From: Candidatus Cloacimonadota bacterium
GTDB lineage: Bacteria > Cloacimonadota > Cloacimonadia > Cloacimonadales > Cloacimonadaceae
DNA length: 64,000 nucleotides
NCBI GenBank assembly: GCA_030154085.1
Contig: JASKKR010000001.1
Span: 4,852 to 68,851, forward strand
Reading direction: 5' to 3'
Both the position numbers and the translations under genes were made by a program. This document shows positions 20,169-36,500 of this stretch, piece by piece. Position 1 is the first letter of the stretch. The number at the start of each line of letters is the position of its first letter. The notes below the pieces were generated by a model. The model did no database searches. It was given only the letters and a program-made list of their open reading frames with translations, and had not been told where the DNA came from.

Positions 20169-21545
20169 TTATAATTCTTCAAAAGTGGCGGTAAAGTGAC
20201 GCATGATGGGAGCTTCGTATTTGATCTTCAGCCCGCGATAACTATCACGCTTCTCCCAGACCTGCTTAAGACCCCACGCCACCAAATCCATGTGATTATT
20301 CGTATAAACCCTGCGCGGAATTGCCAGCCGCAAAAGTTCCATCTTGGGTGGACGTTCCTCGCGAGTGACAGGATCACGATCCGCAAGAACTGTGCCGATC
20401 TCTACTCCTCTTACTCCAGCTTCAATATAGAGAGCAACTCCCAAGACTTGGGCTGGATATTCTGTTTGTGGAATATGAGGGAAAAACGATTTGGCATCTA
20501 CATAAACCGCATGACCACCCGTGGGCTTTACGATCGGAATACCCAATTTGCTGATCTCATCTCCCAGATACTTCACCTGAGAAATGCGTGCGTGGAGATA
20601 CTCAAATTCTGTCCCCTCACGCAAACCGGTTGCCAAAGCGTCCATATCGCGCCCGCTCATGCCACCATAGGTGATGTACCCCTCAAACATGATATTGAAC
20701 GTGCAGCACTCACGAAAGATGTCTTCGCTGCGTAAAGCGATGAATCCGCCAATGTTGACTATCGCATCTTTCTTGGAGCTCATGGTCATGCCGTCGGCAT
20801 AACTAAACATCTCGTGTGCAATCTCTTTGATGCTTTTATTTTGATATCCTTCTTCCCGAATTTTGATAAAATAGGCATTTTCTGCAAACCGGGCAGAATC
20901 AAAAATCAGCGGAATATTATGCTTTTTGCAAATTGCTGAAGTGGCTTTGATGTTTTCCATCGAAACTGGCTGCCCACCGCCTGTATTGCACGTGATTGTC
21001 AGCAACACAAAGGGAATTTTCTCCGCACCATGAGTGGTGATGCAGGCTTCTAACTTTTTAAGATCGATATTGCCCTTGAATGGTGCTTCCAGATTCATAT
21101 CGTTGGCGATATCCACTGTGCAATCCACCGCTGTGGCATGACGAAATTCAATGTGCCCCTTAGTGGTATCAAAATGGGAATTGCCCGGAACTACATCCCC
21201 AGACTTTACCAGGACTGAAAATAATACGTTTTCTGCCGCTCTACCTTGATGAGTGGGCAAGACATAAGGGAATCCCGTAAGCTCGGTGATGGTATCTTTC
21301 ATGCGATGAAAACTGCGGCTGCCCGCATAGCTCTCGTCCCCCATCATCAGAGCTGACCATTGGCGATCGCTCATGGCACCGGTACCAGAATCCGTAAGGA
21401 GATCGATATAGACATCCTCCGCACGAAGATTGAAGAGATTATACTCAGCTTTCTTTATTTTTTCTTCACGCTCAGCTCGACTCAATATCTTCAATGGTTC
21501 CACCATCTTGACGCGCCAGGGTTCGGAATAAGGCTGTTGACTCAT
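20169..21545 (-). CDS. tnaA: Tryptophanase (beta-eliminating lyase family)
   Basis: DLLTDSGTGAMS, DSARFAENAYFIK and the PLP lysine region SSKKDA. HFDTTKGH has the Asp seen in tryptophanase (FFDTTQGH), not the tyrosine phenol-lyase form (YFTTTR). ATG at 21545 has GGAGA 5 nt upstream. Confidence 0.75.
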   Translation of the reverse strand: MSQQPYSEPWRVKMVEPLKILSRAEREEKIKKAEYNLFNLRAEDVYIDLLTDSGTGAMSDRQWSALMMGDESYAGSRSFHRMKDTITELTGFPYVLPTHQGRAAENVLFSVLVKSGDVVPGNSHFDTTKGHIEFRHATAVDCTVDIANDMNLEAPFKGNIDLKKLEACITTHGAEKIPFVLLTITCNTGGGQPVSMENIKATSAICKKHNIPLIFDSARFAENAYFIKIREEGYQNKSIKEIAHEMFSYADGMTMSSKKDAIVNIGGFIALRSEDIFRECCTFNIMFEGYITYGGMSGRDMDALATGLREGTEFEYLHARISQVKYLGDEISKLGIPIVKPTGGHAVYVDAKSFFPHIPQTEYPAQVLGVALYIEAGVRGVEIGTVLADRDPVTREERPPKMELLRLAIPRRVYTNNHMDLVAWGLKQVWEKRDSYRGLKIKYEAPIMRHFTATFEEL

Positions 21546-21740
21546 TTTGTCTCCATTTATCTTTTTATTTGTTTTCATATCAGTATAATGGCAATGTCCA
21601 TGACGCTGGATTTGTGTCAAATCTTTTCTGCACTTTCCTTGTCTCCCTTAGCCATATTATGCCAGATACTTTCACCAAAACTGCCAAATTTCCCATTCTT
21701 GACACTCAGATTTTGGAATTCTCTTGATGTTTTGATGCTT

Positions 21741-21845
21741 CTAACTTTCGATTTTGCAGCACACTTCACGCCTCCCTCGTTTCACCCCCATTTGAGAAGT
21801 GAGCAAGAAACGAGAAAATAAGGAGTTACAGCTTTGTGAAGTACG
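21741..21845 (+). repeat. Copy 2 of the ~105-nt structured intergenic repeat
   Basis: Carries the invariant 22-mer on the plus strand. Stem is CTCGTTTC / GAAACGAG. The outer helix ACTTCAC / GTGAAGT is intact. Confidence 0.85.
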
Positions 21846-21968
21846 TTCCACAATAGTAAAACCTGAGCTAAAGCAGCAATCTTCTTTAGTATTTAAAATG
21901 CCCTCTGTATGGAGGGCATATCCTTCTATTTCAGAAGAATGAGCAGGTAGTGCTGATATCAATATAAG

Positions 21969-24005
21969 TTAAGAATCCATTTCTTCCAAAGGAATATTAA
22001 GCTCTTCTGTTCCCGGGATCACGAAGCGACCATCGCGGATGATATCCGTGACAACGCCATTATTATCCACAGCCGCAATAGATTGGAGCATTTCATAGGG
22101 CAGGGTGATATCCATATGTTTCATCAGATAGGCATTCACAGGATCTTCTTTGCGGGTAGCAGAGTGCTCGTTTTCAACAGCAATCATCTCTTTGCCATTC
22201 ACAAAGCTGGGATGCGGTAGATCTTCTTCATGACTATAGCAAGTATCACCAATCGCAAAATGAGGGCCCATCTTTTCGATGATCAGAATTGGTAGCAGAG
22301 CCATAATGTCATACTTTTTGGCAAATTGATAAGCATGAGTATTTGTACCAATCGCAAATTCTCCGATAGGCAAGCTTTTATATGGTAACAGCAGATTTTC
22401 ATGGATATACTTTTTCCCTTCGTCGGGATCCCTGAAGTTGGTGCAAGAATAGTCTGTTACCCAGCCATCTTGGAAATGGATTTTAAGGTTATAATAGCGT
22501 AAGCTTCCCAAATAGATGTCCTCCACATGGAGAATGCCAGTGGTACCCTTCAGCATTGGAGAAGTAAAGACTTCACCCACCGGGATATTCACATCCGCCA
22601 CGCAATTTTCAAAGAGAGTCTCATGGGCGGGATCTTTTAATTTGTGCATCTGAACTTTGATGTCGGTTTCGTTGCCGGCTTTGCCTTTGACGTGAACATA
22701 ATCTGCAGTGTCCAGCACATCGATGATTTTCTGTTGAATCTCAGCATATCGCTTGCTATCCAAGAGGTTTATCTTCAGTGTATCCGCAAAGATTTCTGGA
22801 AATTTCTCCCCAAATTCGGCTGAGGGGAAGGCTATGATGCTAAAGCTAGATTCATCGCGTTTGTAATACTGATAGTAAAGCTGCCCGCTGCGAGCGCTCT
22901 GTTCTCGGAACAATTCTTGCTGTTCTTCAGAAAGTTTGAGTGTGGTTGACTTGACCTGGGGTGAGAAAGGAGTCTCCCCAAAGAGTTCCAGATAGAGAGG
23001 ACCGGCTTGTAGAGCAATAATATCTTTGAGGCTTTCCAGACTCTTTTGCATGGCGTTCAAGCTGGCTTCCATGAACTCTCTATCCAAGGTAAGGGCACTA
23101 TCATAGCGGTGATCATAGCCAAATTGGCGATTGATGCCGATGGTGTGAGGCAATGGTACCAGAGTGGTAATTCCGATCTTTTCTAGTTCGTCGATAATTA
23201 TTCGTCCCAGAGCTTCCATCCCCACGGGAATCATAAGATTGGCATATCGCTTGTTGCGGTAGTCCTTTCCGCTGCGGACAAAGCCATCAACCCAGCATTT
23301 AACAAAATATTTAGCAATAGCTTCCAGCTCCTGGGAAGGATAACTGCGCATAAATTCTGCCATCTTGACATCGTGTTTACTGAGATATACACCATAGCGA
23401 TAAAGATAACAGATGTCATCCAGATCAGCATCACGAACGACCCTGTAATATACATCAAATTCTGGACAAAAACGCATGGCATATGCGGCAGTAGTCAGCA
23501 GTTCCTGGTTTTTGGTGCTTTCTTCCTTAAAAATCTTGAGCCATTTGTCATATTCTGGAGTGTCGGCTTCCTCCAAAAGGCGGAAGAAGATATCGAGCAT
23601 GGCTTTGACAGCCACATAATTTCCATTGATCATGTGCCGTCGGCTACCATAAGCTTGGCTGAAGCAGGCACCGATGAGTCTACCCATTTGCAAACCGTAC
23701 AGCTCATTAGCATAGTCTGGATTGGCTAAGCATTTGTCATAACCAGACTCGGGATCCAAGGAACTGTAGAAATCTTTATTAATACGTTTAAGTTCATTTA
23801 AAGGAATGCTTTTGAGCAGGGGGTCTTTGTCCATTTTTTGGACGAAATCCCAAGCTTGCAGGACTATGAGTCGGTAGGCATTGAAAAATTCGGAATATGG
23901 ATTTTGCAGATTAATTTCGATGTCTCTCATCTCCTGGATGAGCTTAGCGCAATCGGTTCTGGGATCAGCCAATTTATCACGTATCATTTGGTAGTTAAAA
24001 CTCAT
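21969..24005 (-). CDS. M29-like aminopeptidase with long N-terminal extension
   Basis: The C-terminal half has NIPVGEVFTSP...GEFAIGTN...PHFAIGD, resembling aminopeptidase T/PepS (M29). I do not recognise the first ~270 aa. Confidence 0.55.
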   Translation of the reverse strand: MSFNYQMIRDKLADPRTDCAKLIQEMRDIEINLQNPYSEFFNAYRLIVLQAWDFVQKMDKDPLLKSIPLNELKRINKDFYSSLDPESGYDKCLANPDYANELYGLQMGRLIGACFSQAYGSRRHMINGNYVAVKAMLDIFFRLLEEADTPEYDKWLKIFKEESTKNQELLTTAAYAMRFCPEFDVYYRVVRDADLDDICYLYRYGVYLSKHDVKMAEFMRSYPSQELEAIAKYFVKCWVDGFVRSGKDYRNKRYANLMIPVGMEALGRIIIDELEKIGITTLVPLPHTIGINRQFGYDHRYDSALTLDREFMEASLNAMQKSLESLKDIIALQAGPLYLELFGETPFSPQVKSTTLKLSEEQQELFREQSARSGQLYYQYYKRDESSFSIIAFPSAEFGEKFPEIFADTLKINLLDSKRYAEIQQKIIDVLDTADYVHVKGKAGNETDIKVQMHKLKDPAHETLFENCVADVNIPVGEVFTSPMLKGTTGILHVEDIYLGSLRYYNLKIHFQDGWVTDYSCTNFRDPDEGKKYIHENLLLPYKSLPIGEFAIGTNTHAYQFAKKYDIMALLPILIIEKMGPHFAIGDTCYSHEEDLPHPSFVNGKEMIAVENEHSATRKEDPVNAYLMKHMDITLPYEMLQSIAAVDNNGVVTDIIRDGRFVIPGTEELNIPLEEMDS

Positions 24006-24030
24006 TGATGCTTCCTCTCTTTGTATTCAC

Positions 24031-24039
24031 ATTATATCA
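24031..24039 (-). promoter_or_regulatory. Extended -10 promoter element (TGATATAAT) for the aminopeptidase gene
   Basis: The minus strand reads TGaTATAAT 25 nt upstream of the ATG, with GAGAGGAAG as SD in between. I found no good -35. Confidence 0.4.
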
Positions 24040-24100
24040 AATTAGCTTGTAGGATGGCGTATCCATCAAGCTTTCTTCTTGCTTGCCAGTCTGATAAATC

Positions 24101-24721
24101 TTAATGCTGCTCTGCCAGACGCCTTGAAAGCACCGCCAAAGAGGCAAACATATCCACATACTCAACGATGATCTCGGGGGGAACACTGATCTTGTGCGGG
24201 GTAAAATTCCAAATTGCTTTAATGCCGCTGTGAACCATTAAATCTGCGATCAATTGGGCTGAATCCGGAGGAACGGTGATGATGCCAATTAGGATATTTT
24301 CTTTTTTCACCACTGTCCCAATATCTAAAGCTGAATACACTGGCACACCGTGCACCTTAGTGCCGATAAGCTCGGGTTTGTTATCAAAACCAGCTACGAT
24401 AGAGAGACCGCGCTGAGAAAACTCCTGATAGCCCAAAAGTGCGCTGCCCAGATGTCCAACCCCCACAAGTATACTGGGGGACGTATCCACCCAGTTTAGC
24501 AATTCTTCGATAGCTTGCTGCAATTCTTCCACATTATATCCCTTTTTTCCTGCACTTATTTTGGTATAAGCGATGTCTTTGCGCACCATTGTCTGATGAA
24601 TGTCAGAGAATACGGAGATTTTGGTTGCAGAGACTTCTTTGAGACCAGCCCTTTTTAGGCGTTTTAGCACTTCCAGATATTGGGGCAATCGTTTGAGTGT
24701 AGAAGTAGGGATCTTTTCCAT
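24101..24721 (-). CDS. rex: Redox-sensing transcriptional repressor Rex
   Basis: N-terminal winged helix (LKRLPQYLEVLKRL) and Rossmann motif VGVGHLGSAL. The start lies 9 nt after the stop of the upstream giant gene. Confidence 0.85.
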   Translation of the reverse strand: MEKIPTSTLKRLPQYLEVLKRLKRAGLKEVSATKISVFSDIHQTMVRKDIAYTKISAGKKGYNVEELQQAIEELLNWVDTSPSILVGVGHLGSALLGYQEFSQRGLSIVAGFDNKPELIGTKVHGVPVYSALDIGTVVKKENILIGIITVPPDSAQLIADLMVHSGIKAIWNFTPHKISVPPEIIVEYVDMFASLAVLSRRLAEQH

Positions 24722-24730
24722 ATAGTCCTC

Positions 24731-27490
24731 CTATTCAAGTGGAAAGGCATGGATAAAACCGCTAATTTGCAGGGTGGAAAGCACGGTTCCTATAATTACA
24801 ACGATGACGATGATAATTTTAAAATAATCCTGCGCTTTTAGCATGCTGACCATGTCATGGTTGCGGGAAAGATATGCACTAGCAGCATAAAATTCTTCCC
24901 CAATGAGTGTATAATCACAAGTGGTGATAAAGAAGGGAATCTGAGTAACAGCATCCGTAGCTGCGATCTGGATCGCTCCTGAGGCATTACCGGTTTCAGT
25001 GAGCAGAAGTGCCTCAGCATTGAAGAAGCCCATATAGAAGATGGTGGCGACTCGCTCCCGCACCGTGATCCCATTTACTCCCGCACAGAAGGGGAATTGA
25101 TCATAGCTAATGAAAAAGATATCATTTTGATTGAAGGAATCTGGACGCCCGACTTCACTATAGGAAGTTGATACGATCTCTTGTGCCAGCGGAAGTACCA
25201 TATAGTCACAATGGGGATTGATCAAGCGAATATCATATTCCGCAGTCTTTTTGGCTACCTGAGCCAAGATCATTAGGCTTGCTATCGTGCTGACATCTCC
25301 CAACGACCCCCAACCAGGCACAAACATCACAGGACGCCCCATCTCGGTTGCGCGACCAATAGCATTGTCGATCTCTTCCAAACCTGCTATCGGGCGGATA
25401 TATACTTCTTTGCGACGTGTGATATTGATGGCGTAAACTACTAAGATGACCAAAAGAATAGTTGCTATTAGGGTCAAAGTCTTAGTGGTGTCAAACCATT
25501 GCGGTTTGGGCATGAACCAGGTGTTGCCATCTGGAGTTTGATAGATATCTGAGATCACAAAAGCACTGTGTCCATCAGTGCCCAAGAGACGATATTGATA
25601 AGTCCTCTGAGCATCATCTCTATACTGGAGCATGATCTTAGTCCATTCTTTTGGAGATTTTGCTTCTTTGGCTTCCTGATATGCGGGATGCCCTACTATA
25701 AAGTCGTATTCTGCTTGCAAATATTCGAGTTCAGCCTTCAGTTCTTCATCCAAAGGATCGTCTGCAATGGCAGCTTGCAGTTCTGTTATGCGCTGGCTGC
25801 GCTGAGCCATTTCCTCCAGAAATGCATCTTGATATAAGGGAGCATTAAAGCTGATGCCTTGCTTGGGATCATTGCCCAGCAATAGGCGAACATCAAAGAG
25901 AAATCTGTCAGTAGCGTCATCATAGCCCACGATTGGGCGAAGCAGATAGTCTTCATAGGGGATGGTGTGTTCATAGGTGCGAGTCAACGTATTGGCACGT
26001 AGACCGGAAGCAAAATCCCAATCGACCTTTGACATTCGGAGCACATCTAAATAGAGCCGAGCTGCATCAAGATCTCCAATAAATGTATCCTGAGGCTGGA
26101 ATCGACGGAAGTAATCGTTGTAAATAATATCTTGCTTCACTATCTCGGTTTCAAATTCTTTTTCACCCAAGAGATGCACTGCCATCTCTGCCTTGAACAT
26201 ATTCATTGTACGATATTCTTCCGGCAAATTCAGATAGATGATCTTGTCTACATATTGCTCAGTAACTTCACCGATAATCACGTCATCTTCTGTCTTGAAA
26301 GTAAATCTCACTCTATCTACTGTATAGAGTTCATTATCGGAGATTTCATAGTTAAACTTCAGCCGACGGTGCCGACGGTCTGTATATTCTGCCAACGTGA
26401 TATACGCCAAAGGCTTGCCAAATGAGATGAGATTTACATCTCCCTTATCATTGGGTTTATCCAAGACTTGATAGTCGGTTAATTTTGGCAAACTGGAAGC
26501 ATCCAAGATGCGGAAGGTTTTGGCTTGCACAACCGCCATCTGATCTTCATAATCCCGATATGCCAGCAGCACGACGAAATCCTCAGGATCTGCTCCAAGC
26601 ACGCTAACATCCTCACTATGATAGTATGTAGCAACGGAATGTATGTTTTGAATCTCAAATAGCTGAATGCCGCGTTCTTGCCAATCAGGCGGCAAAGCGC
26701 CGTCTTGAGCAAGACCTGCTTTCGGATATAGCCACCCTTCCCAGATCGCCACATCCTGCGCTCCAGTAGGTGGACTCCATTCAAAATTCATCTGCCCAAG
26801 ATCAGGATAGTAGCTACTGTGCAAAATAGTTGTGGCATCCGGAGGATTATCGATGGGAACTACTTCAGCTACTTCTGAAGTAGAGATGATCTGCCCACGC
26901 TCGTTAACAGCTGATATGGCATAATAATAGTGATGTCCTGCTTTAGGAATGGCATAAATACTTTCAAGTTGGATGAGCTTGAGAGAGCTATACTGCTGAT
27001 CATTCAATTCCAGTTTCTGGGAGTGATGATGGAGGTTGCGTGATCTGACCAAGGCATAGCTGGAGTAATCATCCAAGAACTTGCCTAAAAGCTGAGAATC
27101 AAGCGGGAATTTTTGATAGAGGGGACTATCAGGACCTTGCTGCTTTTCTTTTTTCAGGCTGTGAGGGGAAGTCTCAAACTCTAATATTGGCTGATCTCCA
27201 GTATCATAGTAATACAGATATGGTGCTAAAACTCCCAATTTTGGATCTACTTCCAGAAAGCTAAGCAAAAATAATGAATCAGGGGAACTTCCCCGATAGA
27301 TATTATATTTAATAATGCGGTGTTCTTTGTCAAGAGGTACCCATTTTAGGATCACCCCGCTTCCATCATCATCAGGAAGATCATAGACGCTAAATTCCTG
27401 AATTTTTAGCTCACGGTTTTGCTCAGCAGCAATGGGTAGCAGCGAGCTGAGAACTATAAGTAGGATAGTGAGTAAGGTAGCTTTTTTCAT
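24731..27490 (-). CDS. Giant bitopic membrane protein B (919 aa), function unknown; paralog of 30070-32994
   Basis: ATG at 27490 gives the signal peptide MKKATLLTILLIVLSSLLPIAA|EQ. About 700 aa are extracytoplasmic with FN3-like motifs. A TM helix (LTLIATILLVILVVYAI) followed by TRRK leads into a ~215-aa domain sharing long identical runs with the paralog, then a terminal TM. Confidence 0.75.
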   Translation of the reverse strand: MKKATLLTILLIVLSSLLPIAAEQNRELKIQEFSVYDLPDDDGSGVILKWVPLDKEHRIIKYNIYRGSSPDSLFLLSFLEVDPKLGVLAPYLYYYDTGDQPILEFETSPHSLKKEKQQGPDSPLYQKFPLDSQLLGKFLDDYSSYALVRSRNLHHHSQKLELNDQQYSSLKLIQLESIYAIPKAGHHYYYAISAVNERGQIISTSEVAEVVPIDNPPDATTILHSSYYPDLGQMNFEWSPPTGAQDVAIWEGWLYPKAGLAQDGALPPDWQERGIQLFEIQNIHSVATYYHSEDVSVLGADPEDFVVLLAYRDYEDQMAVVQAKTFRILDASSLPKLTDYQVLDKPNDKGDVNLISFGKPLAYITLAEYTDRRHRRLKFNYEISDNELYTVDRVRFTFKTEDDVIIGEVTEQYVDKIIYLNLPEEYRTMNMFKAEMAVHLLGEKEFETEIVKQDIIYNDYFRRFQPQDTFIGDLDAARLYLDVLRMSKVDWDFASGLRANTLTRTYEHTIPYEDYLLRPIVGYDDATDRFLFDVRLLLGNDPKQGISFNAPLYQDAFLEEMAQRSQRITELQAAIADDPLDEELKAELEYLQAEYDFIVGHPAYQEAKEAKSPKEWTKIMLQYRDDAQRTYQYRLLGTDGHSAFVISDIYQTPDGNTWFMPKPQWFDTTKTLTLIATILLVILVVYAINITRRKEVYIRPIAGLEEIDNAIGRATEMGRPVMFVPGWGSLGDVSTIASLMILAQVAKKTAEYDIRLINPHCDYMVLPLAQEIVSTSYSEVGRPDSFNQNDIFFISYDQFPFCAGVNGITVRERVATIFYMGFFNAEALLLTETGNASGAIQIAATDAVTQIPFFITTCDYTLIGEEFYAASAYLSRNHDMVSMLKAQDYFKIIIVIVVIIGTVLSTLQISGFIHAFPLE

Positions 27491-27555
27491 TTTTTCCCCA
27501 TGATAATAAGGGCAAGCCGAATACCGGTATATAAACCCCCGGTAGGGCATCAAGT

Positions 27556-27597
27556 AAAACACAGCAAACCCGGCGTAAAGCTGAGCCTCACGCCGGG
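27556..27597 (-). terminator. Putative intra-operon hairpin (attenuator/partial terminator)
   Basis: 8-bp GC-rich stem CCCGGCGT / ACGCCGGG with a 13-nt loop. On the minus strand it is followed by TTTGCTGTGTTTT. It sits in the only sizeable gap (122 nt) of the module. Confidence 0.4.
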
Positions 27598-27612
27598 CAT
27601 ACTGCTTTATAC

Positions 27613-28218
27613 TTACTTGATGATCATTTTGAACACATCGTTCACAAGGAACTGAATACGCCCGATCAAAAGCGATATACGAGCCATCACGGTGAGACCA
27701 AATGATGCTCCGAAACCGATCATCATATACCATTTCCCGACGCTTACAAACTTCCCATAGGCACCAGTGTGCGCTTTTGAGAAGAAGAAGTAAAGCAAGA
27801 CCGCAATCGTCCCGATGAAGATCAGGAAGAGGTTGATGGTCTCAATTGGAATCATTGCTTGGCGCATCTGCACCAAGATCGCAGCGTGAATGCCCATCGG
27901 GACACCCATACCTACTGACATCATTGAGAAGGCGATAGGATAGCGGGATAACCAGCCCAATTTGCGAGAAAAACGGAATAGATATAGCATACCCAAGATA
28001 GCAGGAATGATCAGCACAAACTGATGTTTGATTACTATCGTCTGATACACATAGGGTACAAACACACGTTCGTATGTATAGACCAAACCATAGCCGAGCG
28101 AGATGCCCACAAGCATTTGCTCTGCCGCTTGGTAGAATGGATTATCTTTGTATAGGAAGGAGAAGATGCACAGTGTGAAAAAGGCTCCAACCAGATTGCT
28201 AAATAATTCGAAACTCAT
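27613..28218 (-). CDS. 6-TM integral membrane protein (201 aa), function unknown
   Basis: Six hydrophobic segments by eye, with no motif I recognise. 12-nt gap to the upstream gene. Confidence 0.65.
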   Translation of the reverse strand: MSFELFSNLVGAFFTLCIFSFLYKDNPFYQAAEQMLVGISLGYGLVYTYERVFVPYVYQTIVIKHQFVLIIPAILGMLYLFRFSRKLGWLSRYPIAFSMMSVGMGVPMGIHAAILVQMRQAMIPIETINLFLIFIGTIAVLLYFFFSKAHTGAYGKFVSVGKWYMMIGFGASFGLTVMARISLLIGRIQFLVNDVFKMIIK

Positions 28219-28230
28219 TTCATCCTCCTC

Positions 28231-29412
28231 TTAGTTCTTTGCCGTACGAGCTTTTTGGATGAAGTAACCTATGTTACCCAAGATAATAAACACGATGATC
28301 ATGATGTGGGCAACACTCTGCGCATTCATACCTATCCGAGCAACTTTGAATTTATACGGAGTATCTCCCGTGAGACGATACAACTCTTGATAGAGAGCCT
28401 CGTCCATTTCTGCACGCATCTCAGGTGTTATTTTGGAGATATCTATTATTATCTTGTCATCCCGCACTTCACTAAGCTTATTGAGGAGGGGGATATATTC
28501 CGGATATTTAGCGCAAAACGCAGTAAATTGATCCATGGTAAATTCTGCCTCAGTCTGTGTAGTAATCCGAATGAGTCTCTTGGTGGATTCATCCTCCAGA
28601 ATTTCACGACCAAAGGGGCGACCGGGAAGAATCTTATTTCCATCTTCATCTACTTTGATACTGTAATCACGAGTAGGATCACGGTACGCAGCAAAAACAT
28701 CCACTAACTTTTCATATTCGGCAGCACCTTTTAGACCGGTTAGCATCCCTATCAATTGACCGGATTGTAGATACGGATAGAGATCAGCAGCCATCACAGC
28801 TGTTACTCCCACTGCGACATTCAAACCATATTTAGGACGGGCATAGGTGATCCAGGTCATCCCTGCCACTGAACCGGAGAATTCCACCACAAGATTCATC
28901 TCACTGTAGTTATTGATACCTCTCATGATTGGTAGGTTTTCCAGTTTGCGTCCCTCAGCATCAGTATTCATAGTATTGGCGATGTTATCACCCATACCCA
29001 AAACTAAAGCAAAGGGTTGGGGTTTGTAACCAAAGTTACAGTAATCCACACCGCTTTGAATATTTGGAAATTCTTCTTTCACGGTATTGATTGCATATTC
29101 TATGATAGGAGCACCGGCTGGCATCCAGGTGAGAGTAAAGACTTTTACATTGCGCTCAAAACAGTGCCTTAAGATAGCAACTTCCATGGGGAAAAGCTCC
29201 GGCATGGTAGCAGCATCATGATAAAAAGAGAGCAGGATAGCGCGGTCTTCACGTCCGGCAAAACTATCGATCATCTGGTATAGATTCTCGGTAGGTGGCG
29301 TAGTAACGTTATCCGAATTATAGGGTATCATCAGCGGGATAATTATAGCCAATGCAACCACAATGTAGATCCAACGGCGATCGAGTTTTTGCATTCTTTC
29401 AAATATAGTCAT
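28231..29412 (-). CDS. Bitopic membrane protein (393 aa) with N- and C-terminal TM helices, function unknown
   Basis: ATG at 29412 has AGGAG 8 nt upstream; the ATG at 29418 is only 2 nt from it. N-terminal anchor WIYIVVALAIIIPLMI and C-terminal anchor IMIIVFIILGNIGYFI flank a ~330-aa soluble region. Confidence 0.65.
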   Translation of the reverse strand: MTIFERMQKLDRRWIYIVVALAIIIPLMIPYNSDNVTTPPTENLYQMIDSFAGREDRAILLSFYHDAATMPELFPMEVAILRHCFERNVKVFTLTWMPAGAPIIEYAINTVKEEFPNIQSGVDYCNFGYKPQPFALVLGMGDNIANTMNTDAEGRKLENLPIMRGINNYSEMNLVVEFSGSVAGMTWITYARPKYGLNVAVGVTAVMAADLYPYLQSGQLIGMLTGLKGAAEYEKLVDVFAAYRDPTRDYSIKVDEDGNKILPGRPFGREILEDESTKRLIRITTQTEAEFTMDQFTAFCAKYPEYIPLLNKLSEVRDDKIIIDISKITPEMRAEMDEALYQELYRLTGDTPYKFKVARIGMNAQSVAHIMIIVFIILGNIGYFIQKARTAKN

Positions 29413-29427
29413 TCCCATAACTCCTTA

Positions 29428-30057
29428 TTAATCACCGCCGCCCAAATATGAGCGTTCGATTCCGAGCAAGATTTTGAGCGAGGTCGCCACCGAACCTAGA
29501 CCAACACCCAGCATTATGCCACGTTTGGAAGCAAGGTTTGGTACGTCCAAGATCCATTGTGAAATTCTCGGTAAGTGGCGCGATATCTGAACTCCCAGAG
29601 GCACCTGCGCCAGCATCACTACGATTGCGGCAATTAATAGCACCGTAGCTTCCGGGCTGCGTGCACGGAATGCCTTATACGCTGCTGATGCCATATAAAA
29701 GGCCAGCAGAGAAAACATCGTGGCACTCATCGGCATCTGTACGTTCTCAAACATCCACATAAAGAGTCCACCCTTTTGAGTTCCACCGATAAAGCCTGCT
29801 AAGCAGGTAATAATAAAACTCGCAAAGAAGAAATAGCTATATTGCCATTTCGGGGCTTTTCTCTTAATCTTGCTTGAATGCATCATAGACAGGGATAGCA
29901 CACCCAATAGCATAGCGAATGAGGACATCGCATATACCCAGGGTAGGTAGAATTGATTATAGAATACTTCCTGGAGGATATAGTGTGGACTGAAAGCCCA
30001 GGCAACCCATATCAGACCTCCGAGGATCACGATTAATAGTGGTATTGTCTTCTTCAT
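29428..30057 (-). CDS. 6-TM integral membrane protein (209 aa), function unknown
   Basis: Six hydrophobic segments by eye. GAGG lies 6 nt upstream of the ATG. 12-nt gap after the giant A stop. Confidence 0.65.
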   Translation of the reverse strand: MKKTIPLLIVILGGLIWVAWAFSPHYILQEVFYNQFYLPWVYAMSSFAMLLGVLSLSMMHSSKIKRKAPKWQYSYFFFASFIITCLAGFIGGTQKGGLFMWMFENVQMPMSATMFSLLAFYMASAAYKAFRARSPEATVLLIAAIVVMLAQVPLGVQISRHLPRISQWILDVPNLASKRGIMLGVGLGSVATSLKILLGIERSYLGGGD

Positions 30058-30069
30058 TGAAAACCTCGT

Positions 30070-32994
30070 TTATTTCTCTGGCATCAGAAGGGTTAATCCA
30101 GTAATCTGGAAGCTGGATAGGACTGCGCCAATGATCACTACAGTGAGGATCACAAACTTAAAATAGTCCTGAGCTTTAAGTGTTCCCAAAAGCATGGGTT
30201 CACGATTCAAGTAAGCACTGGCAGCATACAATTCTTCTCCAATTAGGGTGTAATCACAAGTGGTGATAAAGAAGGGAATCTGAGTTATAGCATCGGTTCC
30301 GGCAATCTGCACGGCTCCAACTGAGTTTCCTGTCTCCGTCATCAATAGCGCTTCTGCTGCAAAATATCCCATAAAGAAGTTTGTAGCCATGTGTTCACGA
30401 ATCATAATACCATTTACGCCTGCCACATAGGCAAACTGCACATTGGTGAGATAGAACACGTTATTGCGATCATATGTATCCGGACGACCAACTGCATAGT
30501 GGGCTTCGCGCACGATTTCTTGGGCAATTGGCATTATAATATAGTCATAACAAGGAACGATAAGCTTGGTATCATATTCAGCGGCTTTTTTGGCAACAAG
30601 ACCCAGGATTCCCATGGATGCAATCGTTGCTACATCTGAGATGGATCCATTACCCATGCAATACAGCATCGGGCGACCCATTTCTGTAGCGCGACCAATA
30701 GCGTTGTCGATCTCTTGCAGACCAGCAATCGGACGAATATACAAATCCTTCCCACGCTTTGCCAATTGTACAAAAACTACCACAATCAAGCAGAACAGAA
30801 TGGTTGTAAACAGGGTCACATACTTATTGTTATCAAACCAATTTGATATCGGCATGTGATAGACCAGCTCTCCATCTATCATTTCAGGTTCAGACTCCAC
30901 GAAAAGACCATGAGCATCAGTCTTGACCACTATAAAGGATTGGCGCCGCATAAAGTCATCATAGGCTTTCAGTACGTGTCTGATCCTGCTGCGATTGCTC
31001 CCTGCTGCAAAGGCTTGATCCACAATCGGATTCTGAGTGTAAGCATTTAGAATGGCCTCTTGTTTGGCAATCTCAGCATCAATCTCTTCCAGGGTAGCAG
31101 CATCTGTAGTTTGTACACGAAGCTGTTGTAGCTCTTCCAATCTGGTTTGAGCTCGGTTGATTGTCTCTTCATGCATTTTAAGGGCTGCCTTATCGAAGAT
31201 ACTGGTTCTGACCATTACCTGATTGTCATTATCCCAGGTAAAATCAACCGTGTGATCCATGAGAGCATAAACTCCTCTGTGATCACCAGGTCTGAGAGCA
31301 CGGCTTTTTCGCTCTATCCCACTGGGTGTATTCATAAACATAACCAAGGAATCACCCTCGGTGTAGCTGATGCCATACACCATTTTTTGGACCATGGAGT
31401 TATAGGGCACAACCACGTCCAGTGAGTTATCAAAAGAAGTATTGCGCATCACCAGACGCCACATCGGAGAGTGCATATATTTCCGATAGACCACGTTATA
31501 CACTTTGGAGACATCTACGCCATTGCGATATAGGGCATTGCTGGGCACCAAGGTAATCATGGCGGGCTCATATTTGAGATATTGTTCGATCACATAGTCT
31601 TCTGGGATATCTGCCCCTTGCAGTCCTATCCCGGAGAGAGTGATCTTGACTCGGAGACCTTTTTTAAAATCATAGCCGTCAGGAAGATTGATGATTACAG
31701 AATTGTCTTGGTAGAATTCCTTGATCTTCTCGATGTGGTCGCCCGTCTCAGGATCGTAGAAATCAAACCACATGTTATCCACTTTTTGGGTTTCAGTCTT
31801 ATTAAGCTGATAGTTGATCCTGAGTTTGCTATTTTCCGCATTCAGTGAGGTGACTTTTATCACAAATACGATGGGATTGTCCCAAATAACAGTCAGTCTG
31901 TCACCCTTATCATTTGGTTTATCTTCCACATAAAAATCTGTGCGGGGTGGCAAGGCGTCGCTGTTTAATACACGTGGTCTGGAGATCGGAGAGAGGGATG
32001 AAGCTCCATAATAATCAATAAGCTGCAGAGTAAACACTGCATCTCTATAGCTGTCTATCTCTTCGCCTACTTCCACTTTAGTATAGTTTGGCAGGCTTCC
32101 TGCTCCAACTTGACCGGAAGCTATTACTCTGGCATTGGTAAGAACTGCATCCGGGTCCTGACTGAGCTCTTCCCATTCCTGAGACGGTATATCATTGACT
32201 TGCAATATGCGATATTGAGTCAAAGCATCTTTGTAAATGGGATATTCCCATTCAAAGCGAAGTTCTCCTGTATCCGGCATCACTACACTATAGAGGGCAG
32301 GAGACGCTTCTGGAGAATTGGGGACCGGCACACCGGCTGTGACCGGAGCATGAGGGAGCATTCTCTGACGTTCGTCTACTGCTACGACTGTATAGTAGTA
32401 GGTCTCACCAGGTTTAAGCAAAGCCAGTATTGTTTGCTGATTTGACTTCAGCCCGGCATAGCTGCTGATTGAGTTGCCTGATTCATCAAATTCTTCTATG
32501 ATTTCACGACTTCTATAATAAAACTGCTTGCGCTCTGCTAAGGAGATCATCTGATATTTTTCCAGCAATGTTGCCGTAAACTTCAGATCTCTGGGAGGTC
32601 TACGATAAAGAATGCCATCATCTGGCTGATCCTTTTCCAGTCGAAGTTTACCAGGAAAGCTGGCATCTAGGATCTCACTGGCAGAATTATCATAATAGAA
32701 CATTTGATCGGAAACAACCGGACTCTTGGGATTTACTTGGATGGACTCCAAGAAAAAGAGCTGGTCTGGGGTAATCCCCCGATAGATGCGATATTCAATG
32801 ATGCGCTTACTGCGATCCAGTGGCTCCCAGGATAACATCAGCCCTGTTCCATCATCGTTCGGGACATCGGTTACCTGAAAATTTCTAATTGTGTTATCGT
32901 CTTTAGATTCACGCTGCTGTGCCATTATCAAGCTGATGCTGAATATAAACACGGCTAGTAAAATCGGGATAAGGCGACGCTTGTCCAACCTCAT
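30070..32994 (-). CDS. Giant bitopic membrane protein A (974 aa), function unknown; paralog of 24731-27490
   Basis: ATG at 32994 has AGGAG 8 nt upstream; the listed ORF starts at GTG 33003. Signal peptide ...FIFSISLIMA|QQ, FN3-like motifs (EYRIYRG, YYYTVVAVD) and a coiled-coil before the TM (LFTTILFCLIVVVFVQLAKRGK). The conserved C-domain contains YIRPIAGLQEIDNAIGRATEMGRP...TQIPFFITTCDYTLIGEE...YAASAYL. Confidence 0.75.
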   Translation of the reverse strand: MRLDKRRLIPILLAVFIFSISLIMAQQRESKDDNTIRNFQVTDVPNDDGTGLMLSWEPLDRSKRIIEYRIYRGITPDQLFFLESIQVNPKSPVVSDQMFYYDNSASEILDASFPGKLRLEKDQPDDGILYRRPPRDLKFTATLLEKYQMISLAERKQFYYRSREIIEEFDESGNSISSYAGLKSNQQTILALLKPGETYYYTVVAVDERQRMLPHAPVTAGVPVPNSPEASPALYSVVMPDTGELRFEWEYPIYKDALTQYRILQVNDIPSQEWEELSQDPDAVLTNARVIASGQVGAGSLPNYTKVEVGEEIDSYRDAVFTLQLIDYYGASSLSPISRPRVLNSDALPPRTDFYVEDKPNDKGDRLTVIWDNPIVFVIKVTSLNAENSKLRINYQLNKTETQKVDNMWFDFYDPETGDHIEKIKEFYQDNSVIINLPDGYDFKKGLRVKITLSGIGLQGADIPEDYVIEQYLKYEPAMITLVPSNALYRNGVDVSKVYNVVYRKYMHSPMWRLVMRNTSFDNSLDVVVPYNSMVQKMVYGISYTEGDSLVMFMNTPSGIERKSRALRPGDHRGVYALMDHTVDFTWDNDNQVMVRTSIFDKAALKMHEETINRAQTRLEELQQLRVQTTDAATLEEIDAEIAKQEAILNAYTQNPIVDQAFAAGSNRSRIRHVLKAYDDFMRRQSFIVVKTDAHGLFVESEPEMIDGELVYHMPISNWFDNNKYVTLFTTILFCLIVVVFVQLAKRGKDLYIRPIAGLQEIDNAIGRATEMGRPMLYCMGNGSISDVATIASMGILGLVAKKAAEYDTKLIVPCYDYIIMPIAQEIVREAHYAVGRPDTYDRNNVFYLTNVQFAYVAGVNGIMIREHMATNFFMGYFAAEALLMTETGNSVGAVQIAGTDAITQIPFFITTCDYTLIGEELYAASAYLNREPMLLGTLKAQDYFKFVILTVVIIGAVLSSFQITGLTLLMPEK

Positions 32995-33485
32995 ACGCTT
33001 CACTCCTATTTGTACATTACTATAAAAGTTTTACTCAGTATCTGTCCAACTGCTTTCAAAAGCCTTATTATGTCAAATACTTTTTTGGATTTAGCACTCT
33101 GAATCTTGCTCAATCGGTCTCTAAAGCCCATAGTCTTCACCTTTTGAACAAATGTAATGGATTCAACAGAATCTGCTCTTGCATAGTTCATAAGATAATT
33201 GAAAGAAGGATAATATTCGAAACAACAAGTTGACTACCCTCTTTAAAATAAATGTGTTCACCCCTCAACCTTCCAAAGTACCAGCGATGCAGAATATGGT
33301 ATTACGCACATGATGGCAATGCCGCAATTGCTAAAACTTGAATTTAAAAAGGAGCGATGGGGTAGCTGGGATTTACAAACAAAACTATCGGCTTTAGCGC
33401 GTTATGCGTCAGGTATTATAGATCACAGGGTCCACTATCCCAAGCTTTAGTCTACACCCTCAAGAGGCACGCCTAATCTGAAAAC

Positions 33486-33519
33486 CTAATAAAAAGGAGC
33501 TCCCGTTTGGGGAGCTCCT
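33486..33519 (-). terminator. Rho-independent terminator after the 1722-aa gene
   Basis: Perfect 10-bp stem AGGAGCTCCC / GGGAGCTCCT with a 5-nt loop. On the minus strand it is followed by TTTTATTAGG. It lies 29 nt after the stop. Confidence 0.8.
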
Positions 33520-33547
33520 ATATCTTTGATGAATAGCCATCGCAGGC

Positions 33548-36500
33548 TTATTTCATCATTATCATTTTACGGGTTGAGCTGTATTTACCAGCATTCATCT
33601 TGAAGTAGTAGATACCGCTGGAAACAGAACGACCATTTTCATCTGTACCATTCCATATCACAGTGTGTTCACCGGCATTGACGGTCTCATTCACGAGTCT
33701 GCGCACGCGCTGACCTTTAACGTTGAATATGTCAATGGTAACGGGAGAGTTTTCTTTCACGCTGTAGTGGATAGTGGTTTCAGGATTGAAGGGATTCGGA
33801 TAGTTTCCTTTGAGTTCGGTAGTATAGACAGGGGTTACTACATCTTCATTGGGAACAGGGCCACTGATGGTTACATCGTCTACGAAGAAGATGAAAGCAT
33901 CATTAGACAGGCACTGAATACCGACATGGATATCCTGACCCGCATAATTTGCCAGAGAGTAGTTAAATTCTGTCCATTCCACCGGAGCTTCCACATAGGT
34001 AGGACCACTGATGAAAGTGAAGTCGTTGGGATTGGTTCCGGTAGTGGATACGCCCACTTTGAAGCGCTCCAGGCCGTAATCAGGCATATAAGTTCTTGCC
34101 CAGAAGGTGATATCTCCACCGCCGTTGATCTGAGGAGTGATCATCCAATCGTTGTTGGGAGGAGTAGTAGCGGCAAAGCTGGCCGCCATTTTAGCTCCAC
34201 TATGGGGCGGATTTTCTTCCAAAGGAGGAGTGGTGGCATCCGGATTGAAGATGATATAAGCCATGGCACTCCCGCTATTCGGGAAGGTAATTCCACTGAA
34301 TCCATAGGTAGCAGACTGATCATTATCCAGCAGAATCCACGGCGCGAAGGTAAGAGAGAAGTCTTGGTAGCTTTCGAAATCATCTTCAAATATAACTTCA
34401 CTCGCCGGTAATTGGAAGTTCACGGTAGTGATCTGTCCGGTGACTACCACTACCCCAGTCTGGGTAACAGCACTGTAATTCGGATGGCTGGCAGTCACAG
34501 AGTGCGTGCCTGCCGGTAGGTTCATGGTGTAAGCACCGTTGTTATTGGATGTGGTAGAATAATCGCCACTCGTGATGGTTGCACCAATAATTGGTTCATT
34601 ATCCATATTGCGCACAAAACCGGCGACTGTACCGATCTCAGTGATTCTTTCGATGGCGTTGGAGAAGGCGGCATTGGAAAGAGCACCACCAGTATAAACG
34701 GCTTTAACTGCCCATTTGTAGGTTCCATCCGGTAGAACACCCCAATCAGTATCCTGGAAAGCAGTAGCACTGATCGGATCCTGGGTGAGGGCGATCCATT
34801 GAGCTTCGTTGGATTCCTGACCCTGCAGCAGGCGCCATACCTTGTATCCCTCAAGAGAACGGTCGGCATTCTGCTGTTCCTGGTTTACCCTAGCGTTCAG
34901 AGCAATCATTTCGCCACGGTCAGGAGCGCTGTAACCCACATATCCCTGGATGTTCCAGTTGTAATTAAGCGTTGAGGCCATAGCTAATAGGGTAGTCCAA
35001 CTGCCAGAGCTATAGATCATATTGCCAAATCCGTCGTTCGCAGGACCCTCATCACAACCCGCTGGGTATGTGCCGGCAGAATGGACGACATTGTAGCCGA
35101 ACCAGAGTTCTTCATTACCGGTAATGAGCACAGGATTGTCTAACATTACGGTCTGGAACTCGTCAACAGCAGCCACTGTGAAAGGTTGATTAACAACCTG
35201 AACACCAGGTGCAGCAGCTGTTCCACCGGTCCAAACACGCAAGGAATAGGTACCAATGTCACCAGGGAAGAGGGAGATGGCATGAAGACTCATACCAGCG
35301 TAATTGGTCAGAGCGGAGGCAGGGAAGCGAATAGCAACAGCAAATTCACCACCACTGGTGAGCCCGATGCTATCATAGTTTTCTCCGCTATCATAGTGAA
35401 TCCAATCGCCACCAGCGGTTCCGGGAGCCATCCAGGTGATATTTACGTTGTTCCCAGCTTCCTCAGCTTGCACTGCAGCAGGCGGCAGAGTGATTTCGGT
35501 GAGGGTGAAGTCCAAAGTAGTAGTCTCTGTCCCCACGATCACAACGTTGTTCTCAGTAGCAGATTCGTAACCGGCCTTAGAAGCGGTAACGGTATATGTA
35601 CCGGCATATACGGCAAAGCTATATTCACCATCGGCATTAGTTGTGCCACTATAATCGCCGGCAGTGATAGTGGCGCCTTCTATGGGAAGACCGGTGCCAA
35701 ACTCAGTTACAACACCAGTGAGGGTTCCCATCATGCCTTTGTGCAGTTCATTGGAGAACGCAGCGTTAGACATCACATCATTTGTGTAAACTGCTTTGAC
35801 AGCGTATTTATAAACGCCAGAAGGCAGCGGACCCCAAGTATTATCCTGATATTCAGTAGGAGTTATAGTGCTGGGGGTAAGGGTAGTCCAGTTAGCTTCG
35901 TTATCCTGATCTGCTGCCAGGAGGCGGTAGACCTTGTATCCAGTAAGGGAACGTTCAGCGTTTCTTGGCTGAGCAGTGATGATTTTTACAGGATTCGGGG
36001 TAACGATGCTACGTGTTGCATCGGCATTTCTAACTATATCTATATGGGGCGCATTAGGAGCGATTTTAGCTTCTCTACTGGAAGTAAGCCGAACCTGATC
36101 ATCACCAACGTAGAAGTCGTCAACGAAGAAGATGAACGCATCGTTTGAAACACATTGCAGACCAACATAAATCTGCTGTCCAGCATAAGCGGAAAGATCA
36201 TATACATACTCAGTCCATTCAATTGGAGCTTCCACATAGGTTGGACCACTGATGATGGTGAAGTCTGCAGGATTTGTTCCGGTTGTGGATACGCCGACAT
36301 TAAAACGTTCCAACCCGTAATCAGGCATATAAGTTCTTGCCCAAAATCTTACCTCTCCACCGCCCATTACTTGGGGAGTAATCATCCAGTCGTTATTGGG
36401 AGGAGTGGTAGAAGCAAAGCAAGCAGCATACTTGTCGCCAGTTACAGCAGGATTATCTTCCAAAGGAGGAGTAGTATTGTTCGGATTGAAGATGATGTAT

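Follow-up and report, generated by a model that had tools for sequence, protein, structure and literature searches.

A conserved four-gene cassette for DUF6754 and three uncatalogued membrane proteins in Cloacimonadota and other, mostly uncultured phyla

Genes at the locus

The DNA considered here is a stretch of 64,000 nucleotides (nt), called the window, from a Candidatus Cloacimonadota bacterium (contig JASKKR010000001.1 of assembly GCA_030154085.1). About its middle lie five minus-strand genes for envelope proteins followed by rex. A preliminary description, made from the sequence alone, treated the five as one module in which two paralogous giants (A and B) flank three membrane proteins. 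The lengths and gaps reported there agree with the open reading frames (ORFs) and with the NCBI nr matches. ORF length and strand were confirmed for all six genes, all of them on the minus strand; the intergenic gaps from giant A to rex are 12, 9, 12, 122 and 9 nt, and 553 nt precede giant A. Identical entries exist in NCBI nr and JGI for proteins of 974, 209, 393, 201 and 919 amino acids (aa), named "hypothetical protein [Candidatus Cloacimonadota bacterium]". The unit that is conserved is nevertheless smaller than the five genes: it is a four-gene cassette coding for a protein with the Pfam domain DUF6754 (giant A in the window, here subunit 1), a protein with six transmembrane (TM) helices (subunit 2), a protein in which a domain stands between two TM helices (subunit 3) and a protein with six to seven TM helices (subunit 4). 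Its features in the window are the following, FN3 standing for fibronectin type III.

30070..32994, minus strand: giant A, subunit 1; 974 aa from an ATG, a GTG three codons upstream being also a possible start; layout signal peptide, periplasmic "antenna" of about 650-700 aa with two PND-type FN3-like modules, TM helix, DUF6754, TM helix
32827..32868, minus strand: first motif of giant A, D-x-P-N-D-x-G...W, DVPNDDGTGLMLSW; A-B strands of an FN3-like domain
31882..31923, minus strand: second motif of giant A, DKPNDKGDRLTVIW; from the alignment of giants A and B
30094..30846, minus strand: DUF6754 domain of giant A (Pfam PF20539, E 1.9e-117)
29428..30057, minus strand: subunit 2, a 6-TM protein of 209 aa (hydropathy, family alignment)
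28231..29412/29418, minus strand: subunit 3, 393/395 aa; TM helix, periplasmic alpha/beta domain, TM helix
27613..28218, minus strand: subunit 4, a 6-7-TM protein of 201 aa (hydropathy, family alignment)

Conservation of the four-gene cassette

When the window proteins were compared by phmmer with all ORFs of 85 loci, the order and strand of the cassette were the same in every locus, and members were missing only at contig ends. Of the 85 loci, 83 have subunit 2, which immediately follows the DUF6754 gene, 80 have subunit 3 and 77 have subunit 4. The window has the same arrangement, with all four genes on one strand, in this order and with gaps of 12, 9 and 12 nt. Around homologues, gene calls show a DUF6754 protein followed by proteins of about 207, 280 and 200 aa, separated by 0-15 nt or overlapping by 4 nt; these belong to a distant Cloacimonadota genome (L001/L002), a member of the Poribacteria (L003), a Latescibacterota-type contig (L004) and a contig without assignment (L005). 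Such spacing is as expected of subunits that are made together and resembles translational coupling. Synteny far outside this genome, which the preliminary description had proposed as a check, is therefore well established. All four subunits are 36-55% identical across phyla, with many invariant glycine, proline and charged positions. We regard it as highly probable that the cassette represents a conserved, uncharacterised four-subunit membrane system.

When one genome per GTDB species was scanned, DUF6754 turned up in at least 592 species, and the taxonomic breadth given here rests on the best 80 loci of these matches. They come from Cloacimonadota, Zixibacteria, Eisenbacteria, Edwardsbacteria, WOR-3, Ignavibacteria, Stahlbacteria, Poribacteria, Latescibacterota, Aegiribacteria and Sabulitectum, together with one metagenome-assembled genome each of Armatimonadota and Planctomycetota.

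Two or three complete cassettes stand one behind the other in many loci of Zixibacteria, Ignavibacteria, WOR-3 and Edwardsbacteria. Three in a row are found in L027, L033, L040, L045, L046, L052, L054, L058 and L070, and also in L049. In a tree of the C-terminal domain (C-domain) of subunit 1, the cassettes of Zixibacteria and Ignavibacteria cluster by their position in the array, which indicates that they are ancient paralogues. Tandem paralogous cassettes of such age fit a diversification of specificity. The WOR-3 triplet is recent according to the same tree, and its host genome measures 2.3 Mb.

The DUF6754 protein

Giants A and B are paralogous from end to end, as had been proposed, with 35% identity overall and about 70% over the last 260 residues. 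Their alignment recovers all the identical runs of the C-domain and all four D-x-P-(N/D)-D-x-G...W motifs. Hydropathy agrees with the layout first read for them: a signal-peptide-like N-terminus, some 650-700 residues, a TM helix followed by lysine and arginine, a domain of about 200 aa and a final TM helix. The signal-peptide cleavage sites and the coiled-coil are by-eye readings.

The conserved C-domain of both giants is Pfam DUF6754 (PF20539). The model is matched from end to end, with scores of 391 and 377 bits against a gathering cut-off of 27. The preliminary description recognised no catalytic, transporter, secretion or motility signature in any of the five proteins. Subunits 2, 3 and 4 indeed match no Pfam or NCBIfam family and have no precomputed Pfam domain, but the C-domain of the giants bears a catalogued signature. 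A HMMER scan of 1.84 billion representative sequences with the 266-aa C-domain as query gave 2157 clusters (at 50% identity) at E<=1e-3 and 771 at E<=1e-30, the proteins ranging from 300 to 1340 aa. In a profile search with DUF6754, 7938 of the 8000 scored 90%-identity clusters reached E<=1e-10, the sources named being Poribacteria, Latescibacterota, Stahlbacteria and Cloacimonadota. The commonest form has about 385 aa and consists of a signal peptide, one FN3 domain (about 100 periplasmic residues), a TM helix and DUF6754; the Cloacimonadota giants are 2.5 times longer.

DUF6754 is C-terminal in all 150 representatives listed, and in these as in the giants it is bracketed by TM helices. Between phyla it is about 50% identical, with some 70 invariant positions in about 250 aa. 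Among these positions are those of the motifs GRATEMG, GRPD, ETG, QIAGT, Q.PFF..CDYTLIGEE..AAS.YL and QD..K; also invariant is K238, located where the last TM helix starts. The positive-inside rule predicts a cytoplasmic location, since lysine and arginine residues follow the first TM helix; this fits an external signal peptide and FN3 domain. The AlphaFold2 model shows a Rossmann-like alpha/beta domain flanked by two TM helices, with a predicted local distance difference test score (pLDDT) of 68.6 and a predicted template modelling score (pTM) of 0.62.

The periplasmic part of subunit 1 differs by lineage. It is mostly FN3, but a beta-propeller of the pyrroloquinoline quinone (PQQ)/BamB type occurs in some lineages and HEAT repeats in one. 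The FN3 start, D.P.D.G...W, is well kept: each of the D, P, D, G and W columns is at least 90% conserved in the family alignment, the first D-x-P-N-D-x-G...W motif of giant A is almost invariant in DUF6754 proteins from other phyla, and a weak Pfam fn3 match accompanies it. In P0196, P0204 and P0215, HEAT repeats or a PQQ/BamB-like propeller replace or accompany the FN3 domain. To judge from the alignments, the conserved core of subunit 1 is the C-domain, the ectodomains having been swapped while DUF6754 was kept. The earlier suggestion that the C-domain is the functional core is borne out by this pattern of about 50% identity across phyla beside exchanged ectodomains.

A variable sensor joined to a conserved cytoplasmic domain is the classic pattern of a receptor, so that the system could be thought of as a transmembrane signalling complex with variable periplasmic sensors and DUF6754 as cytoplasmic output. 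The tandem paralogues, and the transcription factor gene rex adjoining the module in the window, would agree with this. However, three more membrane subunits, equally conserved and with 12-13 TM helices, are always present; scans with Pfam and NCBIfam found no known output, kinase, cyclase or HAMP domain; and no regulator is conserved nearby, rex being adjacent in only three of the 85 loci. A receptor is consequently improbable in our judgement.

Subunits 2, 3 and 4

Subunit 2 is predicted to begin in the cytoplasm and to cross the membrane with six TM helices, its loops rich in lysine and arginine alternating as the positive-inside rule expects. Its conserved motifs are RAFRAR, VPN.AAKRG and GIER..GGG. 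An FG-GAP insert of about 380 aa enlarges the subunit 2 of L054 (8791-10569).

Subunit 3 had been called bitopic. It has two hydrophobic segments, at residues 17-35 and 369-387, and is better described as a domain between two TM helices. According to the positive-inside rule and the family alignment, both termini are cytoplasmic and the domain is periplasmic. His371 and Asn382, within the C-terminal TM helix, are invariant, and the motif GAAEYE is conserved. The subunit 3 of the window and of its closest relatives has an insert of about 100 aa that is specific to Cloacimonadota. Its 120 best-scoring homologues are at least 67% identical. AlphaFold2 gave an alpha/beta domain between the two TM helices (pLDDT 70.5, pTM 0.65), the model being built on a shallow alignment of Cloacimonadota sequences of at least 67% identity.

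Subunit 4 has six to seven TM helices and its N-terminus, by the positive-inside rule, is probably outside. The conserved motifs are KDNPFY..AEH, FSKEHKG and GFGASFG.TVMAR.SLLIGR, the last of which places conserved arginine residues within the last hydrophobic stretch (TVMAR.SLLIGR).

The four subunit families are mutually unrelated, hhalign giving a probability of at most 2.2% for every pair of family profiles. Two relationships were considered and ruled out by BLASTP and by this comparison of profiles: that the two 6-TM proteins are paralogues, and that the domain of subunit 3 is a relative of DUF6754, as a by-eye likeness of GAAEYE to GEELYAASAY had suggested.

The Cloacimonadota version: giant B, a hairpin and rex

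In Cloacimonadota, giant A orthologues are 46-100% identical overall and the antenna is enlarged to about 650-700 residues. The window carries, in addition to the cassette, the following features, the last of which concerns a cargo gene of the type IX secretion system (T9SS).

27561..27605, minus strand: GC-rich hairpin with a U-rich tract, directly 3' of the subunit-4 stop codon
24731..27490, minus strand: giant B, 919 aa, paralogue of subunit 1 (alignment, tree, nr match)
24749..25507, minus strand: DUF6754 domain of giant B (Pfam E 4.8e-113)
24101..24721, minus strand: rex, 9 nt after giant B (NCBIfam Rex, E 3.5e-70)
32995..33494, minus strand: upstream non-coding region of the module, putative promoter region
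33495..33519, minus strand: intrinsic terminator of the 1722-aa T9SS cargo gene (10-bp stem, 7 GC pairs, T-run)

A second giant follows subunit 4 in 11 of the 22 Cloacimonadota loci, and most of the remaining loci have the four genes alone. A single Cloacimonadota clade of the C-domain tree contains all A and B copies, the B copies forming groups of their own; this points to a duplication within the phylum. By its place in the tree, giant B is a Cloacimonadota-only duplicate of the first cassette gene, without subunits 2-4 of its own.

The hairpin noticed earlier in the 122-nt spacer between subunit 4 and giant B was confirmed. It has a core stem of 14 bp, and the spacer folds with a minimum free energy of -55.3 kcal/mol (z = -5.75). 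A strong hairpin occupies the equivalent place in 10 of the 11 other Cloacimonadota five-gene loci, their sequences being unrelated, and in L010, L014 and L021 a T-run makes it a canonical terminator. The spacer hairpin is a candidate leaky terminator or attenuator that would close the four-gene unit. Because a terminator-like hairpin is conserved after subunit 4, the four-gene core looks like the main transcription unit. Expression of giant B would depend on read-through, on re-initiation after the hairpin or on a promoter of its own. The five-gene module gives way, on these grounds, to a conserved unit of four genes and a lineage-specific copy behind a terminator-like hairpin.

The preliminary description also suggested that the five genes might form a single trans-envelope operon under, or linked to, redox control by Rex. 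The gene rex does lie 9 nt downstream of giant B, on the same strand and with no terminator between, and the same arrangement exists in L025, L036 and L041. However, these are the closest relatives of the window and the only loci of the 85 with rex after the module; in more distant Cloacimonadota it is missing at this position. The ancestral unit has four genes, and the hairpin parts giant B and rex from the core. Within 24731-33560 there is no match to the Rex operator (TTGTGAA-N6-TTCACAA) with up to three mismatches. A Rex-controlled operon is accordingly very unlikely. The adjacency of rex is a recent accident of gene order that gives no evidence of regulation, and rex is a neighbour outside the conserved system. 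The best Rex-operator-like site of the window stands at 21834-21853 (TTGTGAAGTACGTTCCACAA, 1 mismatch), about 215 nt upstream of a gene for a 483-aa beta-eliminating lyase of the tryptophanase / tyrosine phenol-lyase type (20169-21620, minus strand). Since the number of operator matches in the whole window equals the chance expectation, this site is a mere lead for a local Rex target.

Genes around the cassette

The terminator at 33495..33519 is the upstream boundary of the module. The preliminary description rightly placed a strong terminator at the end of the 1722-aa cargo gene: a 10-bp stem and a T-run are present, and the cargo carries Por_Secre_tail, besides CarboxypepD_reg repeats and a cleaved-adhesin domain. 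Upstream of giant A, sigma-70-like matches lie at 33443-33415 and 33048-33019, their number being no higher than in shuffled sequences, and an Rfam scan of 23500-34000 returned no RNA family. The GC content is even across the region, and so gives no hint of foreign DNA. The upstream neighbours are the cargo gene (33548-38716) and ClpB (38896-41469); a 678-aa M29-like aminopeptidase is encoded downstream of rex.

In nine loci of several phyla (L004 at 6783-7904, L024, L026, L028, L030, L037, L038, L066 and L081), a soluble protein of about 375 aa (MAHAYTPGLKV...) is encoded just upstream of the cassette on the same strand, with 55-60% identity across phyla. Its only match is a weak one to the RnfC_N / biotin-lipoyl barrel-sandwich, and a profile search of the PDB gave none. 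This protein, absent from the window, may be a fifth, cytoplasmic component in some lineages. In Zixibacteria and Ignavibacteria the third cassette is followed by a conserved ORF of 119 aa without family match and then by pyruvate phosphate dikinase. The ORF stands downstream of the last cassette in L033, L040, L042, L046, L054, L058, L065, L070 and L072, and in some loci an ADP-forming acetyl-CoA synthetase lies about 4 kb beyond the dikinase. Near some Cloacimonadota cassettes there are genes for an M23 peptidase, a glycosyltransferase of family 4 (GT4) and phosphatidylserine decarboxylase. In L001/L002 (1-7820) the cassette is preceded by GroEL and by a Mu-like transposable prophage segment with Mu-transpos_C, TniB/AAA_22, DUF3164 and S24 repressor genes.

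Searches against known families and structures

The claim that the module is uncharacterised was upheld by Pfam, NCBIfam, PADLOC, PDB-sequence and Foldseek-PDB searches, none of which returned a characterised relative. Pfam at E<=1, over 30-35 diverse members of each subunit family, gave only scattered noise for subunits 2, 3 and 4 (for example 7TMR-DISM_7TM, TMD0_ABC and Acyl_transf_3). The PADLOC anti-phage models had zero matches for all five proteins, and profiles of the four families found nothing below E = 0.8 among the PDB sequences. Foldseek comparison of the DUF6754 and subunit-3 models with the PDB gave no match at E<=1e-3, the best E-values being 0.015 and 0.041, respectively. Faint LOG/SLOG-like matches (MCP, PpnN, TRPM2) were below significance and were not used. 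A literature search found no mention of DUF6754 or PF20539, and a search by phylum names gave nothing relevant. In Pfam, DUF6754 is catalogued only as a domain of unknown function, and the partner families, the gene order and the tandem cassettes are uncatalogued.

It could be proposed that the cassette encodes a membrane-embedded enzyme complex that makes or modifies an envelope lipid or glycan. On this view the active site would lie in the cytoplasm and be built from the invariant cysteine, aspartate, glutamate and arginine of DUF6754; a lipid-linked intermediate would be held or flipped by the polytopic subunits, and the product would be completed or attached by the periplasmic domain. The roughly 70 invariant positions in a Rossmann-like domain of 250 aa, including CDY and GEE, do look catalytic. 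The GT4 glycosyltransferase, phosphatidylserine decarboxylase and M23 peptidase neighbours in Cloacimonadota, a PMT_2 protein in a Poribacteria locus and a Wza-like SLBB protein in L005 would be suitable company. However, no such envelope-enzyme neighbour is conserved across phyla, no glycosyltransferase or other enzyme fold was recovered (best Foldseek E-value 0.015), and swapped protein-interaction ectodomains would be unusual in an enzyme acting on lipids or glycans. This explanation appears unlikely, although it deserves some weight.

Comparison with known membrane complexes

The cassette recalls the Na+-NQR and Rnf membrane complexes, a likeness that we take as a lead only. It contains two 6-TM subunits of about 200 aa that seem to be oppositely oriented, one of about 270 aa whose globular domain is periplasmic and one of about 400 aa; moreover, the upstream soluble protein of about 375 aa in nine loci has the weak RnfC_N-like barrel-sandwich match. 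However, the two 6-TM proteins of the cassette are not homologous to each other, the gene order is another one, and a subunit that oxidises NADH or ferredoxin is lacking. Over 30 members of each 6-TM family, no match to the Rnf-Nqr Pfam was obtained at E<=1, and conserved cysteine pairs and an SGAT-type flavinylation motif are absent from the alignments of the subunits.

A 6-TM subunit of permease size together with a subunit in which a large periplasmic domain stands between two TM helices, as in GldG, gives the cassette some likeness to ABC-2 / GldFG transporters of the ATP-binding cassette (ABC) type. No ABC_tran gene was found in the cassette or its recurrent neighbours, and no match to ABC2_membrane or ABC_transp_aux.

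GldLM/PorLM of the T9SS is likewise an inner-membrane complex of bacteria of the Fibrobacteres-Chlorobi-Bacteroidetes (FCB) type with a long periplasm-spanning subunit, and in the window a T9SS cargo gene adjoins. The cassette differs from it in having no sequence or fold match, another number of subunits, another topology and, in most DUF6754 proteins, short ectodomains. No Pfam or NCBIfam profile of the T9SS core (GldK/L/M/N, PorLM) matches in the module.

Another conceivable reading is an ion-motive-force motor or stator, comparable to GldLM/PorLM, ExbBD or MotAB, that would deliver energy to the outer membrane through the giant, for instance in relation to the T9SS. Invariant polar residues do lie within TM helices, a helical stalk was read by eye in the periplasmic giants, the genome uses T9SS with a cargo gene next to the module, and the family is concentrated in FCB-type phyla. 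However, outside the membrane most members have no more than a single FN3 domain of about 100 aa, so that transmission of force across the periplasm cannot be ancestral. Pfam gave no GldL/GldM, MotA/ExbB or OmpA-like matches, and the family also occurs in Poribacteria and Armatimonadota. A motor of this kind is therefore quite unlikely.

Possible function of the cassette

We tentatively propose, as a reading that falls somewhat short of probable, that the cassette proteins form an inner-membrane translocase or transfer machine. The polytopic subunits, rich in conserved glycine and proline, have the look of a membrane path, and the conserved domain in the cytoplasm that of a site for ligand binding, energising or catalysis. 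Ectodomains for protein interaction that can be exchanged, together with the ancient cassette paralogues, further suggest that different partners or substrates are served. The predicted architecture has one conserved alpha/beta domain on each face of the membrane and one exchangeable periplasmic module.

In such a machine the four subunits would assemble into one inner-membrane complex with about 16 TM helices. Subunits 2 and 4 would provide the membrane path, the cytoplasmic Rossmann-like DUF6754 domain would be the site of ligand binding, energising or catalysis, and the periplasmic alpha/beta domain of subunit 3 would act as the receiving site. Docking to partners or substrates in the envelope would be the task of the lineage-variable antenna of subunit 1. 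With about 650-700 residues, the antenna of Cloacimonadota is long enough that it could plausibly cross the periplasm and meet the outer membrane. Giant B is a probable alternative head on the same three core subunits, which would be made together with rex through read-through of the hairpin or re-initiation after it. The trans-envelope complex suggested in the preliminary description is still an inference, and to span the envelope cannot be the core function, most members having only about 100 periplasmic residues.

Several results weigh against a translocase or transfer machine. No likeness to a transporter, secretion, motor or enzyme family was detected, which makes the function purely inferential. 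Neither in the cassette nor among its conserved neighbours is there an ATPase or another recognisable energiser, and the sequence of DUF6754 has no recognisable nucleotide-binding motif. Clustering of the flanking genes across loci revealed no universally linked neighbour and no consistent pathway. The best Foldseek matches, whose TM-scores are about 0.2, are generic proteins of the TIM or Rossmann kind, and the models themselves are only moderate (pLDDT 68.6 and 70.5).

In a wider formulation, the cassette would define a new class of four-subunit inner-membrane machine, either a translocase or an energy-coupling device, with a cytoplasmic Rossmann-like module that is not an ATPase. This class would be characteristic of FCB-related and allied candidate phyla, diversified by antenna swaps, by tandem duplication of cassettes and, in Cloacimonadota, by periplasm-spanning giant heads. 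We consider the arguments for and against this formulation to be evenly balanced.

Significance

The order of four protein families, of which three are uncatalogued, is fixed across about a dozen mostly uncultured phyla at 36-55% identity, and two or three copies are often present, even in a genome of 2.3 Mb. Conservation at such a level usually marks core machinery of the cell, and the cassette probably marks cell-envelope machinery that is as yet unstudied; the characterised systems of transport, secretion, motility and respiration include no recognisable relative. Many DUF6754 proteins of Poribacteria (for instance P0289, P0292, P0299 and P0386) are labelled only "fibronectin type III domain-containing protein". 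In studies of sponge symbionts such genes could be miscounted as eukaryote-like proteins of host interaction, a reading that a definition of the cassette would correct for some of them. Defining the cassette would give a function to thousands of genes now called "hypothetical" or "fibronectin type III domain-containing" in Cloacimonadota, Zixibacteria, Ignavibacteria, WOR-3, Poribacteria and Latescibacterota, and may uncover a new principle of transport in the envelope or of energy coupling.

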